Notes: a model not told the origin generated them from the letters alone. DNA of 64,000 nt from Saprospiraceae bacterium (GCA_016787525.1 JAEUUP010000027.1:3058-67057), one strand, 5' to 3'; positions 11,165 to 64,000 are shown, counted from the stretch's first letter. Numbers and translations: made by a program.

Positions 11165-12070
11165 CTAATTCGGTTCTTTTTTAAGCTTTTCTTGTATGTC
11201 TAATACAAACGCTTCCGTCACATGTGCAACTTTTGCTATGCTGTTAATCGGTAACAGACCTTCTTTGAGCAGTTCCTTGATAATTTCAATTTTACCTTCA
11301 ATTATGCCTTCAATTTTACCCTCAGTCTTGCTCTTAACGATTAACTTTTGTGTTTCTTCTTTTTCGCGTTCTATTTCAGCTTGATTCACGAGCCAATATT
11401 GATAAGCTCGATACCTATCGGGTGACAAAGTACGAATATCAAGCTCACCTATCGGAATTTTGAGCCAATCTTCTTCCCAAAATGCGGGTTTTTCTGCAAT
11501 TTCTGCCATGATATGTGCATTTTTGATAGTGAAAATTAATTTTTCTAAGTCCGACTTCACTTTATCAGCACTTAAACTAAACTTTTCTAACTCTACTGTG
11601 ACGTATTGTATGGTACTTGGATACGCTACACCATCTTGATTTTTCAACGAAATAATGTTGTGGTAGCTTTCTACTTCATGAATATTCGTCCCTAAGATGG
11701 CGATGCAGTAGATTTTCTCTTTGATATTGAAGTCAAATTTACCTTTTCTCACCAAAGTATCAAAACTTTGAAACGCATAAAATTGCATTCGGTTCAAAAA
11801 ATACTCTTTGGCTATGCCTTGCATTTCGACAATAAATGTGTTACCTATCTCGTCGGTACACAGTACATCGAAAATGCCACTGCGGCTGTCTTTGATAAGA
11901 CCATCAAACGTATTTTTCAAAAAAGTTATTTCTTCAATTTTATGAGGCAATTTGAGCAAGGCTTGTAAAGCTCGTTTTAAAAAAACTGTATTTTTTTCAT
12001 TGCCAAAAGTGACTTTAAAGCCATAATCGGATGTAAAAGGTATGAAATTCAGTTTTCCCAATTCGTTCAT
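11165..12070 (-). CDS. Rpn/YhgA-like PD-(D/E)XK nuclease family 'putative transposase'
   Basis: 301 aa. N-terminal ...DYGFKVTFG...FLKRALQALL...DVLCTDEIGNTFIVEMQ... matches the conserved PD-(D/E)XK core of the Rpn family common in Bacteroidota, followed by a coiled-coil C-terminus. Confidence 0.65.
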   Translation of the reverse strand: MNELGKLNFIPFTSDYGFKVTFGNEKNTVFLKRALQALLKLPHKIEEITFLKNTFDGLIKDSRSGIFDVLCTDEIGNTFIVEMQGIAKEYFLNRMQFYAFQSFDTLVRKGKFDFNIKEKIYCIAILGTNIHEVESYHNIISLKNQDGVAYPSTIQYVTVELEKFSLSADKVKSDLEKLIFTIKNAHIMAEIAEKPAFWEEDWLKIPIGELDIRTLSPDRYRAYQYWLVNQAEIEREKEETQKLIVKSKTEGKIEGIIEGKIEIIKELLKEGLLPINSIAKVAHVTEAFVLDIQEKLKKEPN

Positions 12071-26272: not shown

Positions 26273-26689
26273 ATGACACTCTTGTTCAATTTAATGGGCA
26301 ACGTAGGCAGTTTTACACTTGTCAAAATGCTCGTTCCTGCTTTTATGGCCATTCTCTTTTTGCAAGCTGGATTCGATAAAGTATTGAATTACAAAGGCAA
26401 TCTTGATTATTTTACCGATTATTTTAAAAACAGCCCCCTCTGTAAAACAGTAGGCTTATTGATGCCAACGATCACGCTCTTGGAAGTAGCTGCGGGCATC
26501 CTTTCGGCCATCGGTACAGTAGCTCTGCTTTTAGGCAATGAAATCTTGGCTTATGTCGGTTTGATGCTCTCCGCTACATCTATTCTTTGTCTGTTTTTTG
26601 GACAACGCATGGCAAAAGATTATGGCGCATCTGCTTCCATGACGGGCTACTTTATTGCGGCTTTAGTTGGTTTATTGATGTTGGCGTGA
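26273..26689 (+). CDS. DoxX-like integral membrane protein
   Basis: Four predicted TM helices. ...MLVPAFMAILFLQAGFDKV... resembles the DoxX family. Confidence 0.4.
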   Translation: MTLLFNLMGNVGSFTLVKMLVPAFMAILFLQAGFDKVLNYKGNLDYFTDYFKNSPLCKTVGLLMPTITLLEVAAGILSAIGTVALLLGNEILAYVGLMLSATSILCLFFGQRMAKDYGASASMTGYFIAALVGLLMLA

Positions 26690-26730
26690 GGCGTTTAAAG
26701 GATACCCTTCAGTAAGCCATCTGTATATTC

Positions 26731-27114
26731 TTACTGAGGGGTGTCTTTCAAGTTTTGAATTTGAGCCAATAAGTCTGCTTTTTGGGCTTCGTAGATGGCT
26801 TTTTGCTCTTCATAAAATTTGGCTTTATTTTTAGTTTGAAAAATATCAAACCCCCATATAGCAAGCATGAGTATTCCACTAAGCAACCCTCCATTACCAA
26901 TAAATGACATAAAATATAAACAAATAATAGTCATACAGGCAAAAATCCAAAAGCCAATTTGTACGTCAGTACTATCTAATTTTGGAATAAAATCTTGTCC
27001 TCGCCCTACTACTTTAAAACCATCCTGCCGCCGCAGCCATTGTGCCTCCAATTCTGCGAGGGCTTTTTCTAATTTTAGAATATCTATTTGCGTTTGTGGA
27101 TTCATTTTTTCCAA
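26731..27114 (-). CDS. Hypothetical membrane protein with flanking coiled-coil segments
   Basis: 127 aa with two central TM helices. It overlaps the upstream gene end by 13 nt, which suggests an operon. Confidence 0.4.
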   Translation of the reverse strand: MEKMNPQTQIDILKLEKALAELEAQWLRRQDGFKVVGRGQDFIPKLDSTDVQIGFWIFACMTIICLYFMSFIGNGGLLSGILMLAIWGFDIFQTKNKAKFYEEQKAIYEAQKADLLAQIQNLKDTPQ

Positions 27115-28358
27115 TATTGATTTTTAAAATCGTCTCTTAAAAAAGGTTCAACAACTTTGTAGGGAATAAAAACGGGACTGACATACCAACCATGATTACC
27201 TTTCCCAACCATGTAAAAACCTTTGGAAGTGAAGCCGTTTGACATGTTAAGCAGTAATTCTCTTTTACCTTTATCGTCATATCGTGCCTCCAAATTAAAA
27301 TAGTTATCTATTGCTTCTGCAAATTTTTCTTCGTCGTAACTTTTCTTAAAAACCTCTTTTTCTGTTAGTTTTCTTTTTCTTTTTATGTCATACGTTTCAA
27401 AACTCACCCCAGCACCACCATAAGTATCCAATTCTGTATTTGACCAAAAGAGTTTGAATATAACAACTAAATCGTCATTATTCCAATAAATACTGTTCCT
27501 CGCAACCACTGAATATTCGCTATTTCTCAAATGCTCATCTTCTTCTAAATCTTTCAAAGCCACGTCAATCGCCTTAGTACCTTCGATGATAAATGAGTCA
27601 CAATGTATTTCACAATTACTATTGAGTTTTAAATGATTATTTAAAAAAAACAAAACATCTTTTTTATTGGCGGGTTTAGCAATAGGTAAACTTGAAGTGT
27701 AAACAATACTCATCTTTCTATCTTCTTTGAGTAATTTCTTTGTGTCTATGTATGGCTTATTGACAAAACACTCTGATAAATCAAATTGAGTCACCCCCTC
27801 AGTATTTGTCTCTTGAAATTCAAAAACACCCTGTATCAATGTCTTGTTATCCAAAATTAAACCTTTCAAAACATTTTTATCGCCAAAACTACCGAGCATC
27901 GTAAATAAATTATCAAAATTTGCTTCTGCTTTATCACTCACATAGAAATCAAGAAACTTCGCTGTATCTGATTTAACACCCCAAACTTCATAGGCTCGTA
28001 CTTTTGATGGAATGAAAACAGTACCCGCAAAAGCCCATTTACCATCATACGTTAAATGTGCAAAATTCAAGTTTAAAATGGCAGAATCACCATTGAAAAC
28101 GCCTACCATGTGTTTGTAGAAAGGACGGTTGAGCTTATTTAAGTTCATGGTAGGCACATTGGGAGTCATGATTTTTAAAACCGAATCTGTCAAACGTTCC
28201 CTTAGTTTATATTCAGAATCCAAAAGATTCATTTCGGGAATAGAATCTTTCTTTTCTTCAATTTGAGTGAGGTTTGCTTCTGGTTGTTTAGCGACTTTAT
28301 CGTGGCAACAAAAAAAGATGAATGTTGTGAAAACAGTAAGTAAAAAATTGATTTTCAT
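27102..28358 (-). CDS. Hypothetical lipoprotein/secreted protein (start chosen at MKINFLL; the ORF track extends to 28508)
   Basis: Signal peptide MKINFLLTVFTTFIFFCC. A terminator-like hairpin at 28446-28492 separates it from the upstream 76-aa ORF, which supports the shorter start. Confidence 0.45.
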   Translation of the reverse strand: MKINFLLTVFTTFIFFCCHDKVAKQPEANLTQIEEKKDSIPEMNLLDSEYKLRERLTDSVLKIMTPNVPTMNLNKLNRPFYKHMVGVFNGDSAILNLNFAHLTYDGKWAFAGTVFIPSKVRAYEVWGVKSDTAKFLDFYVSDKAEANFDNLFTMLGSFGDKNVLKGLILDNKTLIQGVFEFQETNTEGVTQFDLSECFVNKPYIDTKKLLKEDRKMSIVYTSSLPIAKPANKKDVLFFLNNHLKLNSNCEIHCDSFIIEGTKAIDVALKDLEEDEHLRNSEYSVVARNSIYWNNDDLVVIFKLFWSNTELDTYGGAGVSFETYDIKRKRKLTEKEVFKKSYDEEKFAEAIDNYFNLEARYDDKGKRELLLNMSNGFTSKGFYMVGKGNHGWYVSPVFIPYKVVEPFLRDDFKNQYWKK

Positions 28359-28509
28359 AAATTTAGTTTTAAAAACGGGTGGCGTAAAAATATAAACGTA
28401 AAAGTTTCGGAAACGATACGAACACCGAAAACGCTGCTGTTTACTCCCCTCAGTAAAACAGCCTTTGCACGGGTGTGCAAAGGCTGTTTTAATTAAAGAA
28501 TTCATCAAA

Positions 28510-28740
28510 TTAAGCGGCTTGTTTCAACTCAAACTGAACATCAATTTCAGCCAAAAGCGTTATTAACTCGGTGACGAGTTGCGCTTTCATCCTTTGCTTT
28601 GATTCAATCAAATACGCAGGGGCATCCATCGAAAGAGCTTGTTTGATGCCTGTGCTGTACATCTTTATCAATTCGACAGTGCGAGTGATGCGCGTCAAAA
28701 GTTCATCTTGATGGGTCGGATCATTTTGTATTGTTACCAT
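28510..28740 (-). CDS. Small hypothetical protein, partner of the upstream minimal nucleotidyltransferase
   Basis: 76 aa, helical composition. Its start is 5 nt after the stop of the MNT-like gene. No HEPN Rx4-6H motif is evident. Confidence 0.4.
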   Translation of the reverse strand: MVTIQNDPTHQDELLTRITRTVELIKMYSTGIKQALSMDAPAYLIESKQRMKAQLVTELITLLAEIDVQFELKQAA

Positions 28741-28744
28741 ATTT

Positions 28745-29188
28745 TTAAAAATTGAGTTGAATAATACCTTTTGGCTTGCCTAACCTATCACTTCCGTACA
28801 ATTCCAATTTTTCATTTTTACTGTAAATTGTAATGTATTGTTTAAAATCCTTTTCAGGATAAACGGGAACTGTGTAAGAATCAATATTTCGCCATCGAAA
28901 CTCATGTTCCCAATTTCTGATTCGATTTTCAAATTTACGGTAAAATTCCCAATCGACAAAATTTACAAGGTCTAAATCATTCGGAAAAGGCTTTTTTGTT
29001 ACAAAACTACCATCAAGCCATTGATAAAAATGTCCACAAGGCGCATTTTGAAACGCTTTCACCAGTTCAAGATATTGGTTAAAAATACGTTCCCGATGCT
29101 CATTAAAAACAAAGTGCGTTTTGAACGTTTCAAGTGTTGTCGGTATTACTTCATAAGGTATAAGATGACCGTTGTTGTCGAATAGCAT
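28745..29188 (-). CDS. Minimal nucleotidyltransferase (MNT, pol-beta fold) domain protein
   Basis: 147 aa. ...WLDGSFVTKKPFPNDLDLVNFVD... fits the GS-x9-DxD nucleotidyltransferase signature. Confidence 0.5.
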   Translation of the reverse strand: MLFDNNGHLIPYEVIPTTLETFKTHFVFNEHRERIFNQYLELVKAFQNAPCGHFYQWLDGSFVTKKPFPNDLDLVNFVDWEFYRKFENRIRNWEHEFRWRNIDSYTVPVYPEKDFKQYITIYSKNEKLELYGSDRLGKPKGIIQLNF

Positions 29189-29453
29189 GTTTTTTGATGT
29201 TTGTTTTAGAATAAAAAAATTGAGTCAAGGACAAATTTACATTTAACAATGATATTTAAGCGTTTTTGGGTACAATAGTCACATTTTTTACACAATATAC
29301 ATTGATTGAAAAAGAGCTTTCTAAAAAGACATTGTCTTGGCGTATTTCCCTAATTATCACAGAACTTATACGGAATATGCCGTGTCTTGATGTTTACCCT
29401 CAGTAAAAGAGCCTTTGCGTGGATATTGGGGGTATTAGCATTAAAATGCTTCA

Positions 29454-29912
29454 TTTTGCAAGTTGCAACGCACTTTTGCAAGTTGCAACGGACTTTTGCA
29501 ACTTGCAAAGGACTTTTGCAAATTGCAACGCACTTTTGTAAGTTGCAAAGGACTTTTGCAAGCTGCAACGCACTTTTGCAAATTGCAACGCACTTTTGCA
29601 AGCTGCAAAACACTTTTGCAAATTGCAACGCACTTTTGTAAGTTGCAAAGGACTTTTGCAAGCTGCAAAGGACTTTTGCAAGTTGCAACGCACTTTTGCA
29701 AGTTGCAACGCACTTTTGCAAGTTGCAACGGACTTTTCCAAGTTGCAAAGGACTTTTGCAAGTTGCAAAGGACTTTTCCAAGCTGCAACGCACTTTTGCA
29801 AGCTGCAACGCACTTTTGCAGCTTGCAACGCACTTTTGCAAATTGCAACGCACTTTTGCAAGCTGCAAAACACTTTTGCAAATTGCAAAAACCTTTTGCA
29901 CGCTGCAAAAAC
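29454..29912. repeat. Tandem array of ~23 units of a 20-bp repeat TTGCAAGTTGCAACGCACTT (variants GCAAAGGACTT / GCAACGGACTT / TTGCAAGCTG / TTGCAAATTG)
   Basis: Directly visible periodicity. Each unit carries the palindromic hexamer TTGCAA twice (GTTGCAAC is also self-complementary). All six reading frames are open across the array, which is a non-coding hallmark. Confidence 0.9.
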
Positions 29913-30141
29913 CGCTATAAGTGGGTAAAATGACTAAATGACCTGCGGCAAACCCTTTGGGCATGAATATGAGTTCAATTAAATGCTATCGTTAAGCTAA
30001 AAACGGACGTGTCTGAAGGACTCTTTTGGAGAAATACAGAAATCAGAGACCCCTCAGTATTAGAGAAACCAAACTCCAAAATAGTCCTTTGGATAGTGTC
30101 GTTCGTTTGTGTCAGCGGGATAAGCACATTGTATAATTAAC

Positions 30142-31191
30142 TTACTCATTGATATGGTTAGTATAAAATATCGCAAAGCCAATAAACATCGATAGAATCA
30201 TAAAAAATCGAAAACCAACTCCATCTTCTGCATAAGCATGTCCACCGCTGTTGATATATTCTGATAATGTGTAATAAACGGTTTTCGAAGTTGTTTTTTC
30301 TATTTGACAAGGTTCGATAAATTCATATTTATCAAAAAAATCTTTCCACGTAGGCTTAACTGTTTGAGCGATTTTATAATTGAAATCTCTTTTAGTAATC
30401 ATCAAACGCAAGGAATCGCGTAAGATGATTGGGTCGTTTTTTAAATTTTTATTCGATAAAGCTTTGAACGCAGCACCGTCAATAGTAAACCTAAAATCGG
30501 CATATTGGGCTAATTTCAAATCGTACCAATGAGAGTTTTTATTGCGTCTTTCCATAAATTCAGATACTGTACCAACAATAGCTACAACATTGTTATTGTT
30601 AAGCGGAGGTTCGGGTTTATAATCAGAATTGATAATAAAGTTAAAAATCAGTAACAAAAGGCTTGATAAGGCAATGCCAATGCCTAATTTACGATAATTT
30701 CGACGAGAAAATATATTTGTACAATTAACATCCTGTTTTGCAAAGTGTGTAATTAATTCTGAAATAGTTTTAAACTCATCATGAGATGAACAACTTTCTG
30801 ATGACATTTGAAAGTATTGGTTATCAACTGTTTGACAATTTAAAATATACCAAGTGCCGTTTTTCCCTTTATGAATATCAATGTCGTAGTTGATAATGTC
30901 TTTATATAGAATTTGGGTTCTTTTGCTTCTAAATCGTTTATAGCTAATTAGAAAAGTATCATAAAAATCGAAACAATCTTTTTGAAAATAACGCCATAAA
31001 AAATAAGACATAATAATAATACAGGAGCAATTGAAAGACACAAAAGTCAAATTAGGATACTTTGTCGTTAATATATAAAATGCTAAAATAAAAAGCCCCA
31101 AAATCCCAGAACCTAAAAGTATAGGTGCTATTAAAGATGGTCTATAATGGAATTTTGATATTTCAGATAATGATTTAGAAGATTCAGACAT
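30142..31191 (-). CDS. Hypothetical multi-pass membrane protein
   Basis: 349-aa ORF with several hydrophobic helices and no recognisable catalytic motif. Confidence 0.35.
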   Translation of the reverse strand: MSESSKSLSEISKFHYRPSLIAPILLGSGILGLFILAFYILTTKYPNLTFVSFNCSCIIIMSYFLWRYFQKDCFDFYDTFLISYKRFRSKRTQILYKDIINYDIDIHKGKNGTWYILNCQTVDNQYFQMSSESCSSHDEFKTISELITHFAKQDVNCTNIFSRRNYRKLGIGIALSSLLLLIFNFIINSDYKPEPPLNNNNVVAIVGTVSEFMERRNKNSHWYDLKLAQYADFRFTIDGAAFKALSNKNLKNDPIILRDSLRLMITKRDFNYKIAQTVKPTWKDFFDKYEFIEPCQIEKTTSKTVYYTLSEYINSGGHAYAEDGVGFRFFMILSMFIGFAIFYTNHINE

Positions 31192-31227
31192 ACTTGTTTT
31201 GATGATTAAAATTTAAGAAAAAGAGTG

Positions 31228-31647
31228 TCAAATGCTTTTAAAACATTTGACTATTTCAAAAAAACTTTGTACCATAAGATAAGCAGGATAATAAATGACT
31301 TTAAGGAAAATTAAAGTGCGATTGAAATCATCTGAATATCGAAATGGATGGTCAATCATACCACCCAATAAGCCGATATTGTCGTATCGTGGTTTAGCGT
31401 CAAAAATATAGCCAATTAGTAGATAAACAAGAAAGAATCCCAATCCTACAATGACATACTTAATCTTTACTGCTTGAAGATCCTGTTTGCTAAACTCAAA
31501 AATATAGTAAACACATACCCAAAAACAAATTTGTCCTAAAATGAGGATGAGAAAATTAATGGGTTCATTGGGTTTATTTTCTCGTACTTTAACGCTTCCT
31601 GTCGGATGTGTTTTTTTAGCTTCCCATAGCCATTCAATTACACTCAT
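31228..31647 (-). CDS. Hypothetical small membrane protein
   Basis: 139 aa with 3-4 predicted TM helices. Confidence 0.35.
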   Translation of the reverse strand: MSVIEWLWEAKKTHPTGSVKVRENKPNEPINFLILILGQICFWVCVYYIFEFSKQDLQAVKIKYVIVGLGFFLVYLLIGYIFDAKPRYDNIGLLGGMIDHPFRYSDDFNRTLIFLKVIYYPAYLMVQSFFEIVKCFKSI

Positions 31648-31742
31648 TTCGCAATAGTTGGTTAGAAATTATGTGATTGTGATACGAAATGTATAAGTTC
31701 GGGAAACTTAAAATTTCCCGAACTTATGACACCCCTCAGTAT

Positions 31743-34040: not shown

Positions 34041-34712
34041 ATGAAAAAAAGCACCTTGTTTTCCTTAATTCTATTCTTAGCCTCTCAATCACTCGTTTTT
34101 GCACAAGATGTGTGCGAAGAAATGATGAAATTCAATGATTATGCAAAAAATCACAACCGCACTTCCCGAATGACAATGACTATGTCTCCTATGGGTCAAA
34201 CACAGATTACAGAATCCGACGGCAAAGGCAGATTTCACATGACCATGGCGATGGAAACACCTATGCAATTGAAAATGGAAAGTGTGCTTACGGGCAATCA
34301 GCTGTACACCAAAAAAGATGATGAAGATTGGAAAGCACAAGATTTGGATAGTGTGCAAATCGCAAGTATGAAACAAAAGTGGCAAAACAACCAGCTTCAG
34401 TTTTTCAAAAATTGCAAAAAACTGGACAATGAAACCATTGGTGGACAAGAATATCGTGTCTATTCAGGCGATTTTGATTACGAAAAAATGCGTGATTACA
34501 TGGGGCAAAACAATGAAGCACAACAAAGTTTAGCCATGTTGCAAAATATGGATATAAAAATGACTTTTTATGTCAACAAGAAAGATGATTTGGAAAGAGC
34601 CAAAATGAAAATGAATGTGCAAGGTATGAGTATTGATGCAGATATGGTTTATGAATATGATTTGCCCATTGTCATTAATATTCCGCCACCGCCAGCACCC
34701 AAAAAAGACTAA
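34041..34712 (+). CDS. Secreted Met-rich hypothetical protein
   Basis: Signal peptide. MTMTMSPM, HMTMAMETPM and similar Met-rich motifs. Confidence 0.4.
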   Translation: MKKSTLFSLILFLASQSLVFAQDVCEEMMKFNDYAKNHNRTSRMTMTMSPMGQTQITESDGKGRFHMTMAMETPMQLKMESVLTGNQLYTKKDDEDWKAQDLDSVQIASMKQKWQNNQLQFFKNCKKLDNETIGGQEYRVYSGDFDYEKMRDYMGQNNEAQQSLAMLQNMDIKMTFYVNKKDDLERAKMKMNVQGMSIDADMVYEYDLPIVINIPPPPAPKKD

Positions 34713-34784
34713 AAAGATGGAGATACTGAGGGGGTAAAACAAAAAAGGCAGCTTGCAAATGAATGCAAACTGCCTTTTGTTGTG

Positions 34785-35173
34785 TGGAGCTGGAGGGCAT
34801 CGAACCCTCGTCCGGTCAAAGCATCAGAGAGCTTTCTACATGTTTAGTCGCCATATTTGTTTTTTCGAGCTGTGGGGAGGTTGGGCGACACACCCAGACC
34901 GCAGCCTTATCTCTTTGGATTTCGCCAACAGCCAGAGCGCTCTGTTAACTATTCTGATTAGGGATGATACGCCGCACGGCAGAAATCAGACAATCTGCGA
35001 AGACCACGTAGGTCGTGTGCTGAGCGCAAAGGCATTCTAACTCCTAGAATTAGGCTGCCATGGCATATTGATAGTTGCCAGCTGTAGTTTAAAGTACCGT
35101 TTTACGGGAGGTAACATCATAGCCCGACATGCTTACTAACCAATTCACTTTCCCGTCGAATCCAGTCAGCCCC
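34785..35173 (-). ncRNA. ssrA: tmRNA (SsrA), predicted tag approximately A-GNYQYAMAA
   Basis: Reverse complement starts GGGGCTGACTGGATTCGACGGG and ends GGACGAGGGTTCGATGCCCTCCAGCTCCA, which are the canonical tmRNA 5' end and tRNA-like 3' end. The internal reading frame GCT GGC AAC TAT CAA TAT GCC ATG GCA GCC TAA follows an in-frame stop. Confidence 0.85.
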
Positions 35174-47223: not shown

Positions 47224-47233
47224 GGGTTGTATT

Positions 47234-47344
47234 ACTGAGGTTTGGGAGCGTTCTACTGAGGGGGTGATAAGTTCTACTGAGGTTTGAGAGCGTTCTACTG
47301 AGGGGGTGATTTGAAATCACCCCCTCAGTAGAACCATTTTCGAG
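47234..47344. repeat. Cluster of five TACTGAGG-family motif copies: two 40-bp direct repeats plus a 19-bp-stem perfect hairpin
   Basis: GTTCTACTGAGGTTTGrGAGCGTTCTACTGAGGGGGTGAT repeated twice, then GTTCTACTGAGGGGGTGAT-ttgaa-ATCACCCCCTCAGTAGAAC. Lies immediately 3' of folD. Confidence 0.85.
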
Positions 47345-47345
47345 G

Positions 47346-47722
47346 TTACTTGCTCCAATTTTGAGCTTGCTTGCTCAATTTTTGAGCTTGCTTGCTCCAA
47401 TTTTGAGCTTGCTTGCTCCAATTTTGAGCTTGCTTGCTCCAATTTTGAGCTTACTTGCTCAATTTTTGAGGTTGCTTGCTCAATTTTTGAGCTTGCTTGC
47501 TCAATTTTTGAGCTTGCTTGCTCCAATTTTGAGCTTACTTGCTCAATTTTTGAGGTTGCTTGCTCAATTTTTGAGCTTACTTGCTCAATTTTTGAGGTTG
47601 CTTGCTCAATTTTTGAGCTTACTTGCTCAATTTTTGAGCTTGCTTGCTCAATTTTTGAGCTTGCTTGCTCCGATTTTGAGCTTGCTTGCTCAATTTTTGA
47701 GCATCTCTCCTCCATTTTTGAG
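47346..47722. repeat. ~18 tandem copies of a 21-bp repeat TTGCTCAATTTTTGAGCTTGC; the minus-strand frame encodes the heptad (SSKIEQA)n
   Basis: Visible 21-nt periodicity. Variants alter only I/L and A/V/T positions of the heptad. The ORF track shows a 132-aa minus-strand ORF (47317..47715) and a 131-aa plus-strand ORF over the same repeats. Confidence 0.85.
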
Positions 47723-47760
47723 GCGCATTAAACGTGTCAACAACTTTTCAATATAAAAAA

Positions 47761-48612
47761 ATGAATTATTACGAAGTAGAAATAACGCCGATGCTCGATG
47801 GCGAGTCAATGGGGCAGTATGTGGAGGAGAAAATCGAGATTTTGATTGCGGTTTTGAGCGATTTGCCTTTCGATACGTTCGAGGAAATGACAACAAGCCT
47901 CAAAGCGTTTATGCGTGAGGAGGATTGGAATGAGTCGGTGGTCGAACAACTCGATGAATTGAGCTTGGCGTTTCATTTTTCTTATAAAACAACGCATGTG
48001 CCGTATCAAAACTGGAATGAAGTGTGGGAATCTAATTTTCAGCCCATCAAAGTGGATGATTTTGTGGGTTTGCGAGCGGATTTTCACCCTGATACTGAGG
48101 GGGTCGTCTTTGATTTGGTTATCAATCCGAAGATGGCTTTTGGGACGGGGCATCACGAGACGACTTATATGATGATGCAGTTGATGCGCGACCTCGATTT
48201 TGAGGGTCAAAAGGTGCTGGACTATGGGTGTGGCACAGGTGTTTTGGCGATTTTGGCTTCAAAATTGGGTGCAACGGTACTCGAAGCGGTGGACATCGAA
48301 GTGGCGAGTTACGACAACACCATCGAAAATTGCGCCATCAATGGTGTCGAGAACGTCGCGACTTTTTGCGGCACGTTGGATGCTGTGCCGTCGTCCGATT
48401 TTGACATTATTTTAGCCAATATCAACCGCAATGTGATTTTATATTCTCTAAATGATTTGAAAAATCGTTTAAAAAAGGGCGGCATCATTCTGTTTTCGGG
48501 CTTTTTGAAACAAGATGAAAACATCCTACTCGAAGCAACCCGCAAGGAAGGTTTCAGTCATTTGGAGACCAAACAGCGGGGCAACTGGATTAGTATGAAG
48601 TATAAATTATAA
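47761..48612 (+). CDS. prmA: Ribosomal protein L11 methyltransferase
   Basis: ...INPKMAFGTGHHETTYMMMQ..., then the SAM-binding VLDYGCGTGVLAI. Confidence 0.8.
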   Translation: MNYYEVEITPMLDGESMGQYVEEKIEILIAVLSDLPFDTFEEMTTSLKAFMREEDWNESVVEQLDELSLAFHFSYKTTHVPYQNWNEVWESNFQPIKVDDFVGLRADFHPDTEGVVFDLVINPKMAFGTGHHETTYMMMQLMRDLDFEGQKVLDYGCGTGVLAILASKLGATVLEAVDIEVASYDNTIENCAINGVENVATFCGTLDAVPSSDFDIILANINRNVILYSLNDLKNRLKKGGIILFSGFLKQDENILLEATRKEGFSHLETKQRGNWISMKYKL

Positions 48613-48886
48613 GGTCAAGAATCTTGTATCATTTCAAGGTTGTTGAGTGTGCATCTATAAAAAATGAGGCTTACGAAATCCTAATATTTCGTAAGCCTCC
48701 TACTTTAAGCCCCCCCTCAGTAAAAACCGAGAAAGCCTGTTAATATTCGTATCAACAAATAATTTCACAAGAGCATTTATCGTTTTTTAACCTTCAAAGA
48801 TTGACTATTCATTGAATCTTACGCATATTTGTTTGATTGACTGTTTAACTCATCGTCCATTTACTCAATATTTAATGTCTGACAGC

Positions 48887-51800
48887 ATGAAGAAGTTTAT
48901 ATTATTCTCTCTTTTTTTGGCATTTTCTTTCTCAAAATCTTTGTCCCAATCGTCAACGACAAAGCCTGCGGCGGCGGCGGTTACAAAGCCCGCTTTGACG
49001 GAAACACCCGCGGAGTTTTTGAAAAAGTTGGAGACTTACGTGACATACAGCCAGCAGCAACAATCTATTTCGACCTTCAAAGCCTTTGAGACGAAGTTCA
49101 AAGGTGGTGCTTTTACGGACGAAGAGCAGACTCGACTGATGACGATTTGTAATGATATGCTGACTTTGAAATTGAACTCAACACCTTATTTTACGGACTT
49201 CTTGCACAGTGCAACGGCGGTGGAGTCAGGCGGTAAGGAATCGCGTTTCGAGAAATGGTTGACGGTGTTAGAACCCATGATAGCCGATGCGATGCAGATA
49301 CGGAAGTTCGAGCCGATAAGACGCTTTTTGGAGTTTTCGACTGATTTCTTCGACCACAATGCCTTGTTCTACGGCACGAATAGCATCAACTGGTATGTGG
49401 ACAATCGCGACTATGTTTGGAAATCGAACAAGGGTATCCCCTCAGTATCGTGGGACAAATTGACAATCAAGGCGGTCTATAAAAAGGATTCGATAGAGAT
49501 AAAAAATACAAAAGGGACGTTTTTCCCAGTGTCGAACCAATGGGAAGGAAGTGGCGCGATAGTGAATTGGGAGCGATTCAAGAACAATGAAATTGAATGC
49601 AAGCTGGGCGATTATTCGATAGATGTGTCGAAAGGTTTTTACAGGGCGGAAAAAGCGTTGTTGAAGTATCCTGCTTTGTTTCCCGACAAAGATATAGAAG
49701 GCGTGTTTGAAGACAAAGTGAACTTCGGCAATGCGACAGTTGAAAACACCTATCCGCGATTCGAATCGTATGAAAAGCGTTTGAAATTGAGCAGTATTGG
49801 TAAAAACATCCAATATCAAGGGGGCTTTCGACTCTATGGCATGACGGTTTTTGGCTACGGTACAAAGGACGAAAAAGCGAATTTGATGATTAACGACAGC
49901 AAGAAAGGTCATCGCGCATTCCGCTCGACCTCAGAGCTTTATGTGATTCGCAAAGGCGAAAGCATTTTGTCCGAAAGCTCCGAAGCGGTCATCTACTTTG
50001 GTTCGGATTCAATTTACCACCCCTCAGTAAATTTGAAGATGAATGTGGCTGAGAACATTTTGATGCTCGACAGAGGCGAGCGAGCGAGCCAACGCAACCC
50101 GTTCTTCAATTCGTATCACCAAGTGAATATGGTGATGAGCAAGATAAAATGGTATATTGACAAGGACTCCATCATTTTGGGCGACAAACAACCGGGTTAT
50201 GGCATCAACAGCAATAATGCTTTGTTTGAATCTCTAAAGTTTTTCAGCGAACCCGACTTCCGCAAGTTTCAGAATATTTCGACACGCAATCCCGTTTCAG
50301 TCTTGAAGATGTACAGCGACCAAGTGCAGAAGCGCATTCTGAATGCCGACGATGCTGTTCGCCAAATCAACCCGAAGATGGACGCGGGCATGGTTCAAAG
50401 TCTTTTATACGAGTTAGTATCCAATGGTTTTGTGAATTACGATGCTGAAAAGAACATTTTGGAACTCAAAGACAAGGTTTTCCACTATTCGTTAGCCAAT
50501 CAGAAAAAAGTAGATTACGATGTACTTAGGGTTTCATCCGAAACCATCAAAGAAAATTCCAATTTCTTTTTGTTGGACACCACAATCCGCATCAACGGTG
50601 TCAAAGGAGTCGAATTGAGTAACAAACAGAAAATCAGAGTTGTCCCACGCAACGAAGAAGTGATCTTGAAACGCAATCGCGACTTCGACTTCGATGGTCG
50701 GATGCACGCAGGCTTTTCAATTTTTTACGGCAAGAAATTCCATTTCAACTACGACCATTTCGATGTGACGATAGACTCAGTGCGGTATCTCGACTTGTAT
50801 CTTAAAACAGGTGAAGACCAGTACAAACGACCGATAGCGTCGGCCATCAATTCCCGCTTGGAGCATCTCAGTGGTGTGCTGTTGATAGATGCGCCGAACA
50901 ACAAATCGGGACGAGAAGATGTGAAAATTATGCCTTCGTTTCAGTCCAAAAACCACAGTTATGTCTTCTACGATGCACCTGAAAACCAAGATGGGGTTTA
51001 CAAAAGAGATTCATTTTATTTCAAGTTGGACAAATTCAATCTCGACGGTTTGGACAGCTTGGACAGAAAGCAATTGAATTTTAAGGGGACGATGGTTTCG
51101 ACGAATATCTTTCCTGATTTTAGAGAGACACTGATGTTGCAACCCGATTCATCGCTGGGTTTCATAACGCCTTCGCCTACTGAGGGGTATCCTTTGTACA
51201 GTGCAAAAGGTAATTTCAAAGGTGACATAATGTTGAACAATAAAGGTTTTTTTGGCAAAGGCTCTGTCAAATACCTCGATGCCACTATTGAGTCACAAGA
51301 CGTTGTTTTCAGACCCAAACAGATGGGTGCCAGTGCGAAAAGCTTTTTCTTAGCAGAGAACCGCCCCAAAAACACACCTCAAGTGGTGGCTCCAGGTGTT
51401 GAAATTGACTGGCGACCCAGTCGTGACTCGATGTATCTGACTTCAAAGGATTCCGCGTTTAAGATATACCCCGAAGGCAATTATTCGATGCGCAACACCA
51501 TTATCTTAACGCCAAGTGGTGTGAAAGGCATAGGCACTTTTGAATGGGAAAAGGGCTATTTGAAGTCGAAGCTGTTCTCTTTTGGCGCGCACTCGGTTGC
51601 AGCCGATACGATGTCGCTCAGTATCCGAGCTTTATCGAATGTATCGGACCAGTTGGCGTTGGACACACGTAATGTCAGAGGCAAAATTGATTTTGACAAG
51701 CAAATCGGTAATTTCAAATCCAATTCGGAGGATGTGATGACCTATATGCCAGGTATCAAATACAAAACAACCATCAACGAGTTCGATTGGGATTTGCAGA

Positions 51801-53431
51801 CCGAGAATATTGATTTCCACTCCGACGGCAAACCTGCTTACTTTTTGAGTGTGGACAAAGAGCAAGACTCACTGTATTTCTTCGGATTGAAAGCCTCTTA
51901 CGACTTGAAATCTAATATTTTGAAAGTGCGTGGCGTTGACCATATCAAAACCTGCGATGCATTTGTCTATCCCGACTCCAACAAGACCCAAGTCGAATTG
52001 GGCGGCAAGATGTCCACTCTGATGAATGCCCGCATCGTTTGCGATACCTTGACGAAGCATCACGTCATCAACCGCGCCACAGTCAATATAAAAGGACGCA
52101 AAGACTACACCGCCAACGGCTTTTATGAATACAACGTGGCTGGCAAAAATCAAGAAATCAAGTTCGACAATATTATTGGTCAGCCAGTTGGCACAGGTTA
52201 TCGCTACCAAAAGCGGACTGAAACCTCTGCCACAGGTACAGTCAAAGCTGAAGATGATTTTTTGATAGACAACAAAACGACGTTTAAAGGGACAATCGCT
52301 CTGTCATCGGGTTCAAAGAATCTGCGGTTCGAGGGTTTTGCGCGGTTCGAGCATGAAAACTTGCCAAACCGCCAGTGGTTCAGTATCAACTCCTATGCCG
52401 ACAAATCTGACTTGGCTTTGCGCTACAATGTACCGAAAAACGAAGAAGGGACACCGCTCTACACAGGCATCTACATCAGCAAAGAGAACGCGCAAGCTTA
52501 TCCACGCGCCATGATGTCTTTGTCTTTTGCCAAAGACCGCCCTGTGATAGAGGTGAAAGGTATCTTTAAGTACAACGCAGGTACAGATCAAATCACATTT
52601 GGCGACTCACTCAAAGTGCGAGGTTCGTCGTTGCAAGGCAACAAAATGATTTATGACAACCGCACAGGCGTTGTCAACTGTGAAGGCAAGTTTTCAATCG
52701 GCGCAGGTCTGCAACACATCAAAGTCACTGCTGCAGGAACCGCTCGCACCAAATTCCTATCGCCCAGCGAAGAACAAAGAGACTCAAACGGCATCAAAGG
52801 CAGCCCCCTCAGTATAGAAGTGATGGCAGCACTCCAAATGTACATCCCCGACAAACTCTTGAAAATCATGGCTGCTGACATACAAGCAGGTACATTCGAT
52901 GCACCTGACACCGATTACAAAAAAGATGATTTTGCCGAAAAAGCGTTGGCAGAGTTTATTACTGACGAAAAGGATTATAAAAAAATCGTGACCGAAATGA
53001 AAGAAAAAACATTGGATTTGCCCGACAAATACAATAAAAACAGCTTTTTCTTCAGTCGCATGTCCATGCGTTGGAACTCCGAACTACAAAGTTTTGTCAG
53101 CTACGGTTCAAAAGCAGACTTGAACAGCGTTTTAGGTATTCCTATCAACAAAAAAGTAACAGCTTGGGTTGAATTCAAACAGCCATCCAACAACGACGAC
53201 CGCGTCTATGTCTATATCAAAACAGCCAACGACTTTTTCTACTTCTTTGGCTATCAAAAAGGCGTATTAGGCATGGCTTCGACCAACCCGAAAATGGAAG
53301 AAGAGTTCAACAAAATCAAACCCAAAGAGCGCATTGCCAAAACAGAAACTGGCACAATCGAACTTCAATGGGAAGATGCTGGCAAAGGCGAGATGTTTGT
53401 GCGTCGCGTACAAGGGGCACAAGGCAAATAG
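48887..53431 (+). CDS. Very large (~1515 aa) secreted/outer-membrane-associated hypothetical protein, possibly AsmA/TamB-like
   Basis: Uninterrupted 4.5-kb ORF with an N-terminal signal/anchor (MKKFILFSLFLAFSFS) and beta-rich composition. The family assignment is a guess. Confidence 0.45.
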   Translation: MKKFILFSLFLAFSFSKSLSQSSTTKPAAAAVTKPALTETPAEFLKKLETYVTYSQQQQSISTFKAFETKFKGGAFTDEEQTRLMTICNDMLTLKLNSTPYFTDFLHSATAVESGGKESRFEKWLTVLEPMIADAMQIRKFEPIRRFLEFSTDFFDHNALFYGTNSINWYVDNRDYVWKSNKGIPSVSWDKLTIKAVYKKDSIEIKNTKGTFFPVSNQWEGSGAIVNWERFKNNEIECKLGDYSIDVSKGFYRAEKALLKYPALFPDKDIEGVFEDKVNFGNATVENTYPRFESYEKRLKLSSIGKNIQYQGGFRLYGMTVFGYGTKDEKANLMINDSKKGHRAFRSTSELYVIRKGESILSESSEAVIYFGSDSIYHPSVNLKMNVAENILMLDRGERASQRNPFFNSYHQVNMVMSKIKWYIDKDSIILGDKQPGYGINSNNALFESLKFFSEPDFRKFQNISTRNPVSVLKMYSDQVQKRILNADDAVRQINPKMDAGMVQSLLYELVSNGFVNYDAEKNILELKDKVFHYSLANQKKVDYDVLRVSSETIKENSNFFLLDTTIRINGVKGVELSNKQKIRVVPRNEEVILKRNRDFDFDGRMHAGFSIFYGKKFHFNYDHFDVTIDSVRYLDLYLKTGEDQYKRPIASAINSRLEHLSGVLLIDAPNNKSGREDVKIMPSFQSKNHSYVFYDAPENQDGVYKRDSFYFKLDKFNLDGLDSLDRKQLNFKGTMVSTNIFPDFRETLMLQPDSSLGFITPSPTEGYPLYSAKGNFKGDIMLNNKGFFGKGSVKYLDATIESQDVVFRPKQMGASAKSFFLAENRPKNTPQVVAPGVEIDWRPSRDSMYLTSKDSAFKIYPEGNYSMRNTIILTPSGVKGIGTFEWEKGYLKSKLFSFGAHSVAADTMSLSIRALSNVSDQLALDTRNVRGKIDFDKQIGNFKSNSEDVMTYMPGIKYKTTINEFDWDLQTENIDFHSDGKPAYFLSVDKEQDSLYFFGLKASYDLKSNILKVRGVDHIKTCDAFVYPDSNKTQVELGGKMSTLMNARIVCDTLTKHHVINRATVNIKGRKDYTANGFYEYNVAGKNQEIKFDNIIGQPVGTGYRYQKRTETSATGTVKAEDDFLIDNKTTFKGTIALSSGSKNLRFEGFARFEHENLPNRQWFSINSYADKSDLALRYNVPKNEEGTPLYTGIYISKENAQAYPRAMMSLSFAKDRPVIEVKGIFKYNAGTDQITFGDSLKVRGSSLQGNKMIYDNRTGVVNCEGKFSIGAGLQHIKVTAAGTARTKFLSPSEEQRDSNGIKGSPLSIEVMAALQMYIPDKLLKIMAADIQAGTFDAPDTDYKKDDFAEKALAEFITDEKDYKKIVTEMKEKTLDLPDKYNKNSFFFSRMSMRWNSELQSFVSYGSKADLNSVLGIPINKKVTAWVEFKQPSNNDDRVYVYIKTANDFFYFFGYQKGVLGMASTNPKMEEEFNKIKPKERIAKTETGTIELQWEDAGKGEMFVRRVQGAQGK

Positions 53432-53442
53432 AATAGTGCTTT

Positions 53443-53474
53443 TACTGAGGGGTGGATTAATCTACCCCTCAGTA
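53443..53474. terminator. Inverted motif pair hairpin (TACTGAGGGGTGGA-ttaa-TCTACCCCTCAGTA) 12 nt after the stop of the large ORF
   Basis: Directly visible palindrome. Confidence 0.5.
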
Positions 53475-53482
53475 TATCAAAA

Positions 53483-54103
53483 TCACTGAATCGGATAACA
53501 CGTATATTCCCCTCGTTCTTCGGCTTCGTGTGAAGAAAGGTCAAATGAGATGTACTGACCATAGCCAAAACTCAAACCTTGTTTTTCCCATTTTTCCCTA
53601 TCAGGACACACCGAAGCCGCCAATCTCAAGTTCCGTGTATCTAAAGGAGTCATATAAATCAGCTTATTCTGTTCAAAACGCATCTCCGTTTCGTACCTCG
53701 CTTCGTGGACGGGTTTTCGATTTTTCAGGTCATAAATAAGCAGCGAACGACCATTCGGTCCAGTGCCATTGTCCACAAACATCAAATTGTCTTTGATGCC
53801 ATAAAAATGGTGTGCATCAATATTCTCAATCCAAAAGGTATCTTTCACCCCCTCAGTAAAAACATAAATTTCCTCGCCAACACCTTCTTCTGAAAGCACT
53901 GTTTTTATTTTATGTTTGGCATAACTATAATTTCGCCCCGTCGTTGTTTCTTCGCATTTAGCTGATTCGCAACCTTTTATGCCCACAAGCGTATCGCGTT
54001 GAGCCGTTGCTACCGAAGACTTAGATGACGCTGTTTGACTTTTATTTTGACCGCAAGCGGAAATAAAAAGCGTGGACAAAAACAGTAAGATTAGATTTTT
54101 CAT
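53483..54103 (-). CDS. Hypothetical lipoprotein
   Basis: 206 aa. Signal peptide plus ISACG lipobox. Confidence 0.4.
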   Translation of the reverse strand: MKNLILLFLSTLFISACGQNKSQTASSKSSVATAQRDTLVGIKGCESAKCEETTTGRNYSYAKHKIKTVLSEEGVGEEIYVFTEGVKDTFWIENIDAHHFYGIKDNLMFVDNGTGPNGRSLLIYDLKNRKPVHEARYETEMRFEQNKLIYMTPLDTRNLRLAASVCPDREKWEKQGLSFGYGQYISFDLSSHEAEERGEYTCYPIQ

Positions 54104-63569: not shown

Positions 63570-64000
63570 CTTGTTTGCTTTTAAAAAGTCAGATAATGCT
63601 TGTTTAATTGCGCTGCATACAGAGAAATACCTAAGCCATAGCTTCACGCCTACTGTCTGCACTGCCTCTCTTTGACCTTCAAACATACAAATTCCTGACC
63701 AATCCGTCAATGATTGTCGTCAGCTTTAAAAGAAACTAAGATGGTGTGGGAAGTGTCGAAATGTGTGTTCATTTGTCCTTCTTGTCAGTCCTTTTGAAGG
63801 ACTGACAAGACCTCTTAAAGGACTTAGAAGACCTCTTATAAGGTCTTAGAAGACCTTTCAAAGGGGAATGTTCAAAAAAGTGTGTCAAGGAGTAAAAATA
63901 TTAAAAAATAAAATTTCCCACATTTTACAGACGTTAGCCAACAATGTTTTAGTGGCTGGGTCTGCCTTATCCACATTTCAATGCTTTGACAAATTTTAAA

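Follow-up and report, generated by a model that had tools for sequence, protein, structure and literature searches.

What does a tandem array of 20-bp units do between two genes of an uncultured Saprospiraceae bacterium, and to which kind of element does it belong? The DNA analysed here, called the window throughout, is a 64-kb chromosomal piece of a Saprospiraceae MAG. The array in question is referred to as array 1. Coordinates count from the first letter of the window, units are counted in register from 29452, and the plus strand is the one carrying the T runs. The features around array 1 are the following.

28510..29188, minus strand: two-gene cassette of DUF6932 (147 aa) and p76, given as context and lying outside the element
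29231..29238, minus strand: predicted −7 box TAAATTTG, a perfect match to TAnnTTTG, 43 bp before the DUF6932 ATG
29396..29405, plus strand: ACCCTCAGTA, a copy of an abundant 10-mer family, 46 bp from array 1
29452..29911, plus strand: array 1, 23 tandem 20-bp units of 15 types with consensus ACTTTTGCAAGTTGCAACGC
29492-29511, plus strand: unit 3 of array 1, with an inverted consensus core
29812..29831, plus strand: unit 19 of array 1, whose 13-nt core, TTGCAGCTTGCAA, exactly matches the reverse-complemented core of units 6, 8, 11, 18, and 21
29872..29911, plus strand: two degenerate terminal units, ACTTTTGCAAATTGCAAAAA and CCTTTTGCACGCTGCAAAAA, at the end of array 1
30048..30070, minus strand: terminator-like hairpin with T-rich tail downstream of p349, containing the abundant 10-mer
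30050..30059, plus strand: second 10-mer, CCCCTCAGTA, in the right flank of array 1

Layout and Coding Potential of the Array

The existence of a 23-copy, 20-bp array, as described in the initial annotation, is borne out by two approaches. TRF reports a period of 20 over 29454-29888 (21.8 copies, 87% matches, 0% indels, score 618). Laid out by register, the array covers 29452-29911 on the plus strand as 23 head-to-tail units in perfect register, with 0 indels and no spacers, 23 being the copy number as assembled in the MAG. Its described position, between two minus-strand genes and 265 bp from the ATG of the downstream one, is confirmed as well; these genes are p349 (30142-31191) and the DUF6932 gene (28745-29188). 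The −7 promoter consensus of Bacteroidota is reportedly TAnnTTTG. With a hairpin downstream of p349 on one side and the −7 box before DUF6932 on the other, array 1 fills the gap between a terminator and a promoter. All copies are in one orientation, and the unit is nearly confined to the array: allowing up to three mismatches, the window contains 29 occurrences of the 16-mer TTTTGCAAGTTGCAAC where 2.35 are expected, 28 of them being within array 1, and CTTTTGCAAG is found nowhere in the window outside it. Two familiar classes of bacterial repeats are ruled out by this layout. A CRISPR array does not apply, as the units abut without unique spacers, and neither does a REP/BIME element, as the unit is missing from the rest of the window and has a single orientation.

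The order of the units is ABCDEFDGDEHIIBJKLFMDGNO, i.e., 15 distinct types among 23 units. Positions 3-6, 9, and 13-17 are invariant, while positions 11, 12, and 18-20 are variable. The self-complementary hexamer TTGCAA had been described as present twice in each unit. Both hexamers are intact in 12 of the 23 units and this description fails for the remainder; the dyad TTGCA-N3-TGCAA is better kept (19/23). The 8-bp palindrome GTTGCAAC, presented as a general feature of the unit, is restricted to 5 of the 23 units. The array can be called quasi-palindromic and satellite-like, as had been proposed, but a cruciform-prone structure is not supported: a single unit folds as a weak DNA hairpin of −3.1 kcal/mol, which is no better than shuffled sequence.

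The claim that differences between units are patterned rather than random holds: variants are common to several units in differing combinations, those at positions 11-12 and 18-20 occur in many combinations across the units, and short runs of unit types recur (DE, DG, and F-D-G). Such shuffled variants and recurring runs are the pattern expected from unequal exchange within the array. Unit 19 would require three simultaneous substitutions if it had not been inverted. From the sequence of their cores we infer that units 3 and 19 are products of template switching at the quasi-palindrome.

Array 1 is, as the initial annotation had supposed, non-coding. The protein of p349 is 100% identical to NCBI JNL70_06025 and the DUF6932 gene is JNL70_06020; these are neighbouring tags with consecutive protein accessions, so the NCBI pipeline called no gene in array 1. 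Five of the seven array-spanning ORFs of at least 50 aa were looked up in a collection of 15 billion proteins and none was present. Moreover, a 20-bp unit under translation would give a period of 60 bp, or three units. The identity between units is 0.864 at an offset of one unit, 0.860 at two, and 0.850 at three, without decay with distance, and this flat profile shows no 60-bp coding periodicity. Openness in all six reading frames, on which part of the original argument rested, applies to the consensus unit and to the three minus-strand frames, but not to two of the plus-strand frames, each of which contains a TAA (at 29539 and 29639) stemming from TTGTAA variant units. This openness is in any case uninformative, because 6% of random 20-mers and 13% of those sampled from the window give a stop-free unit.

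A Homologous Array in an Unrelated Context

Exact scans with two-unit patterns of genome, metagenome, and viral contig collections gave no match, and neither did BLAST searches of plasmids and phages with the complete intergenic sequence. Since gene callers sometimes call ORFs in stop-free arrays, the plus-strand translation of array 1 was used as a protein query. It matched one protein, P0019 (E 1e-16, 70% identity), the C-terminus of which is a translated array. P0019 is an ORF called across an array of 15 units of 20 bp at 1436-1735 of a 13.8-kb contig (L110; JGI 3300079869), for which TRF gives 14.4 copies, 92% matches, and the consensus TTTTGCAAGTTGCAACAGAC. One unit type, ACTTTTGCAAGTTGCAACGG, is identical in both arrays. 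In addition, both arrays start with GTTGCAACG(C/G) units and both finish with an A-rich unit ending in CTGCAAAA (ACTTTTGCAAACTGCAAAAT in L110). Having the same start and end units, the two arrays are homologous lengthwise and have the same polarity.

The surroundings of the second array are different. In L110, a divergent ABC-transporter ATPase gene lies 520 bp away and a gene for a 239-aa protein starts 75 bp downstream, followed by SusC/SusD. These neighbours are unrelated to those in the window, and the flanks of both arrays have only the abundant 10-mer in common. That 10-mer occurs in 8 copies per 11.6 kb in L110, whereas only 2 were counted in 980 kb from other Bacteroidota loci; this density assigns L110 to the same clade as the window. 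An L110 array in an unrelated context makes array 1 one copy of a dispersed, clade-restricted family. This family comprises two known loci in two genomes, and the 64 kb of the source MAG that form the window contain one copy. The only comparison of copy number within the family involves L110 and a contig with the same locus from a second sample (L111): the array has 15 units in both samples and is identical, while the neighbouring gene differs by 9 SNPs.

Beyond these loci the family quickly fades. The sequence CTTTTGCAANNNGCAA is present in none of 111 other loci, ~1 Mb in total. An exhaustive phmmer search yielded 423 matches, many of which are 20-aa-periodic translations of other 20-bp arrays, and one of which is a fungal protein. 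Two contigs among these, L113 (537-2594) and L114 (424-720), contain 20-bp arrays whose palindromic units, TCTTTGCAAATTGCAAAGAC and CATCACTGCAAGTTGCAACC, respectively, show a striking similarity. Both contigs are GC-rich and either repeat-dense or eukaryote-like. For this reason, and because of the fungal match, the phmmer matches were rejected as evidence of a wider family. With 1.8 billion proteins searched, the likeness of the L113 and L114 units probably arose by convergence or chance. They do illustrate how often stop-free 20-bp arrays are mistaken for proteins.

Positions 11-13 and 18-20 are those that vary in both arrays of the family, against (almost) no variation at positions 3-10 and 14-17. 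The variable positions of array 1 and the L110 array overlap (P = 0.03), and the events in L110 fall at positions that vary in the window (P = 0.008). If only alleles that are new in L110 are considered, P = 0.24, so that shared ancestry may explain the pattern of conserved and variable positions. The joint conservation could otherwise reflect selection on a binding site or a hairpin.

On balance, and with modest confidence, array 1 is best regarded as a non-coding minisatellite that is one copy of a clade-restricted, dispersed 20-bp family with core ACTTTTGCAAG..GCAA. Such an array would grow, shrink, and be shuffled through slipped-strand mispairing and unequal recombination between units, and template switching at its quasi-palindromic TTGCA-N3-TGCAA core would add further changes. 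Copies of the family would also spread to new sites, as is suggested by same-polarity arrays at two non-homologous loci. Array 1 would have no sequence-specific task in the control of the DUF6932 operon, and any effect on neighbouring genes, e.g., through spacing or through hairpin-prone DNA or RNA, would be incidental. Some observations do not fit easily. The same positions are conserved and varied in both arrays, at the P-values of 0.03 and 0.008 given above. A very unstable array predicts a change in copy number between L110 and L111, yet this number is equal despite 9 SNPs. No terminal inverted repeats (TIRs), leader, tail, or target-site duplication point to a mechanism of dispersal. Lastly, the family consists of only two known loci, and no second genome covering the site of array 1 was found.

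Precedents for this kind of element exist. BrickBuilt of Porphyromonas gingivalis is a minisatellite/MITE of 23-nt imperfect direct repeats with up to 22.8 copies; it is intergenic and species-restricted, displays dyad symmetry, occupies 19 loci per genome and differs in copy number between strains (Klein et al., 2015; PMC4596501). Array 1 resembles BrickBuilt in being a Bacteroidota array of spacer-less direct repeats (20 vs. 23 nt), in up to ~23 copies, with imperfect units, fixed conserved and variable positions, an always intergenic location and a presence in a narrow clade only. The array 1 family additionally shares with BrickBuilt a dyad symmetry with predicted long stem-loops, an occurrence at non-homologous loci, and the lack of an Rfam match. 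However, BrickBuilt has a conserved leader and tail, IS5-like TIRs, and 19 copies, whereas array 1 has no leader, tail, or TIRs, its family counts one copy per sampled stretch, and the unit sequences of both are unrelated. MITEPgRS/MITE464, another element of P. gingivalis, contains 41-nt internal tandem repeats and is dispersed (PMC4596501). It is a second dispersed minisatellite in Bacteroidota, but its 41-nt unit, repetitive flanks, and TIRs are unseen in array 1. Array 1 also shares its intergenic position and its head-to-tail units of tens of bp with bacterial VNTR loci such as the MIRU-VNTR of Mycobacterium tuberculosis, in which slippage and recombination drive evolution. Array 1 is best classed as a new representative of the general kind of dispersed bacterial intergenic minisatellites, not a relative of BrickBuilt.

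Other Explanations and the Neighbouring Genes

The likeness to BrickBuilt raises the possibility, which we consider unlikely, that array 1 belongs, as an internal minisatellite, to a non-autonomous mobile element of the BrickBuilt/PgRS type, with a transposase encoded elsewhere acting in trans. The presence of same-polarity arrays of one family at two non-homologous intergenic loci is in line with this, and BrickBuilt offers a precedent within the Bacteroidota, some of its copies consisting of repeats only (PMC4596501). Moreover, the unit junctions TGCAAAGGACT and TGCAACGGACT resemble at ~10 of 12 positions the IS5-family ends TGCAAAGGTCTC and TGCAACGGTCTC, which are terminal repeats tabulated for P. 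gingivalis (PMC4596501), although this comparison was made post hoc. Nevertheless, there is no inverted repeat of at least 9 nt between the window flanks, nor between the L110 flanks, and the two loci have no leader or tail in common and no target-site duplication. No transposase was present in the parts examined, i.e., the genes flanking array 1 (Pfam), the N-termini of the other ORFs of the window, and L110 (precomputed Pfam). The flanks of array 1 do not recur elsewhere in the window apart from the 10-mer, the ACCCTCAGTA copy being the only part of the left flank that does. The plus-strand translation did give a match to PF13586 (IS5-type DDE_Tnp_1_2, E 1e-7). It was rejected because no single stretch passes, making it an artefact of summing over repeats; the translation of a second array in the window, array 2, likewise 'matches' 116 Pfam families.

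Alternatively, array 1 might provide sites for a clade-specific DNA-binding protein, as an operator, iteron, centromere-like site, or decoy. With one site per 20 bp, or about two helical turns, the bound proteins would align along the DNA. In support of this explanation, which we rate as improbable, the core of ACTTTTGCAA and GCAA is (nearly) invariant in 38 units from two independent loci, the variation is limited to positions 11-13 and 18-20 in both arrays, and the dyad TTGCA-N3-TGCAA is present in 19 of the 23 units of array 1. A period of about two helical turns is moreover typical of iterons, those of R6K measuring 22 bp. Known plasmid arrays of this type (R6K, F sopC, and R1 parC) similarly consist of direct repeats that recur about every two helical turns and contain a short conserved core, but they adjoin their own rep or par genes on the replicon, whereas array 1 is chromosomal and has no such genes, and its family has two copies in unrelated contexts. 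A gene for an HTH, RHH, ParA/ParB, or Rep protein is found beside neither array, the two arrays do not have any neighbouring gene in common, and none of the six window neighbours (by Pfam and PADLOC) or the L110 neighbours is of the Rep/ParB/ParR type. Single-copy sites are absent from the window and from ~1 Mb of loci; the only dyad that the window has outside array 1 is located within a large gene. Among the 15 L110 units, 5 have a broken dyad, and the conservation loses its significance once the test is confined to alleles that are new in L110 (P = 0.24). For lack of a nearby regulator, par or rep gene, and of single-copy sites, the transcription-factor or partition-protein array of the initial annotation has no positive support, and only the core positions conserved in both arrays leave it a small probability. 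Inspection by eye also led to the rejection of a Sigma-54 promoter and of a full Bacteroidota promoter geometry in the unit, as the spacings do not fit.

One of the earlier proposals invoked the neighbouring 'MNT operon', a label that does not stand. The protein in question matches DUF6932 (PF22014, E 6e-28), while its match to NTP_transf_2 remains under the Pfam cut-off; it also matches the PADLOC candidate PDC-M63A. The neighbours p139, p349, DUF6932, p76, p468, and p127 are mostly without Pfam families. Together with its 76-aa partner p76, the nucleotidyltransferase-like DUF6932 protein forms a portable two-gene cassette that is found in at least three other contexts in related contigs. On metagenome contigs L104-L106, the pair is present at ~85% nucleotide identity, with differing DNA up- and downstream. 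No array precedes the cassette in the 226, 15, and 98 bp of upstream sequence present on these short contigs, and L104 has its own TAAATTTG octamer upstream of it. As the upstream DNA available for the cassettes of the relatives contains no array, the cassette has its own −7 box, and the L110 array stands beside unrelated genes, a role of array 1 tied to this operon is not upheld. The predicted behaviour of the cassette itself is toxin-antitoxin-like or defence-like.

The cassette and array 1 are situated in a labile part of the chromosome. L001 and L002, the closest GTDB relatives (flotillin 93-94% identical in amino acids, 85% in nucleotides), miss the proteins encoded at 28510-31740, and an orthologous-locus comparison anchored on flotillin found both relatives without the island. 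The block p468 - p76 - DUF6932 - array - p349 - p139 (27267-31740) is absent or replaced in L001 and L002. The 97%-identical prmA contigs L107 and L108 stem from two sequencing runs, one of which also gave the Logan contig L109. This contig matches the window at 97% identity across 26453-27267, and its similarity ends inside p468. The absence in L001 and L002 and the break of L109 in p468 delimit a small hypervariable island from the flotillin gene to p127. Near this island, a gene for a lipoprotein-like protein of 223 aa (34041-34712), between the tmRNA (34782-35173) and the flotillin gene, is missing in L002, where the tmRNA region directly abuts the upstream region of flotillin; it may be a small insertion next to ssrA. 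Elsewhere in the window, a 301-aa ORF at 11165-12070 has an N-terminus containing FIPFTSDYGFKVTFG, which presumably resembles the Rpn/YhgA-type PD-(D/E)XK 'transposase-like' nuclease family.

The variable and possibly defence-related nature of this island (PDC-M63A), with a tandem repeat upstream of an operon, is what speaks for array 1 as a contingency locus in which slipped-strand changes in copy number would adjust how strongly the DUF6932 operon is transcribed. We nonetheless hold this proposal of the initial annotation to be very improbable. Being intergenic, with 265 bp to the ATG and 214 bp to the predicted −7 box, the array does not reach into the core promoter. With 15 types among its 23 units and 87% matches it is heterogeneous, the upstream DNA available for the cassettes of relatives contains no array, and the copy number of the L110 array is equal in two samples.

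Lastly, it is highly doubtful that array 1 is transcribed into a functional RNA, such as a multi-hairpin sponge or structured ncRNA, or translated: the whole minus-strand RNA has a more stable fold than shuffled sequence (z = −5.0) and the three minus-strand frames are all open, but the RNA ensemble is ill-defined (MFE frequency 0, with a differing centroid structure), unit hairpins are no more stable than shuffled ones, Rfam contains no family matching at gathering score and a permissive search gives only sub-threshold microRNA-like hairpins, and besides the missing three-unit periodicity and annotated gene, no homologues of the minus-strand translation were found.

Other Repeats of the Window and Their Meaning

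Array 1 is not the only array of its size class in the window. Three others, with a period of 21 bp, are the following.

47336-47722: array 2, 18.4 copies of 21 bp with unit ATTTTTGAGCTTGCTTGCTCA, in the folD-prmA spacer
47233-47303: small array, 3.4 copies of 21 bp, consisting of the duplicated left arm of the folD terminator hairpin, each with the abundant 10-mer
63790-63864: small array, 3.5 copies of 21 bp, short hairpin units upstream of a 1060-aa gene

The unit ATTTTTGAGCTTGCTTGCTCA of array 2 forms a 5-6 bp hairpin with a T5 run, and the array ends 39 bp before the prmA ATG. An ORF has probably been annotated in it, as the accessions skip one number between FolD (MBL7814557) and PrmA (MBL7814559). 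Two Logan contigs with an identical PrmA are 97.5% identical to the window over 47740-53920 and lose homology at 47740, just past array 2, which is thus missing from this conspecific strain; in a distant relative, folD and prmA are only 15 bp apart. In a wedge model with Bolshoy-Trifonov parameters, the values of which are relative only, array 2 is predicted to be extremely curved (end-to-end/contour 0.04-0.10). Array 1, in contrast, reaches 0.95 and is straighter than 631 of 636 window segments, and phased T-tract curvature was consequently rejected as a property common to the arrays. Neither are the units of the four 20-21-bp arrays of the window significantly related (P = 0.14-0.78). In ~1 Mb of related loci, no array with at least five copies and a period of at least 19 was found. 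Together with the loss of array 2, this indicates that such arrays are unusually dense and labile in this species. An apparent enrichment of period 21 among the TRF matches in these 1 Mb of loci was rejected, as these are mostly two-copy matches near the score threshold.

Besides arrays, the window is filled with a short dispersed oligomer. The 10-mer CCCCTCAGTA, or 11-mer (C/A)CCCCTCAGTA, is hyper-abundant at ~1 per 850 bp. Its 9-mer core occurs 79 times in 64 kb versus 0.15 expected (~1 per 810 bp), with 38 copies on the plus and 41 on the minus strand; 59 of the 79 copies are inside genes, in several frames, and there is no extended consensus. Inverted pairs of the 10-mer form terminator-like hairpins, and further example sites lie at 47292-47334. 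In same-clade loci, the 10-mer is present at ~1 per kb, compared with 2 copies in 980 kb of other Bacteroidota. No literature was found on CCCCTCAGTA. Its pattern is the signature of a putative DNA uptake sequence or another architecture-imparting oligomer. To our knowledge, DNA uptake sequences are so far described from Neisseriaceae and Pasteurellaceae. The 10-mer may hold more interest than array 1 itself. Given a genome saturated with this 10-mer and the other 20-21-bp arrays, arrays might be gained and lost in connection with frequent uptake and recombination of DNA.

If array 1 is a dispersed minisatellite, as favoured here, it has little meaning for the biology of the cell. It then serves as an indicator of rapid intergenic turnover in an uncultured lineage of Saprospiraceae. 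It is also a concern in practice, as such arrays break short-read assemblies and yield spurious ORFs, e.g., P0019. A more far-reaching but improbable interpretation is that the arrays either form an unrecognised repeat system that propagates itself and lacks TIRs, leader, and tail, or are docking arrays for a clade-specific DNA-binding protein. As a self-propagating system, and this too we consider a long shot, whole arrays would keep their polarity and end units while moving to new intergenic sites. The family would carry greater weight if it were indeed mobile without the usual transposon ends, or if it served as a protein-docking array.
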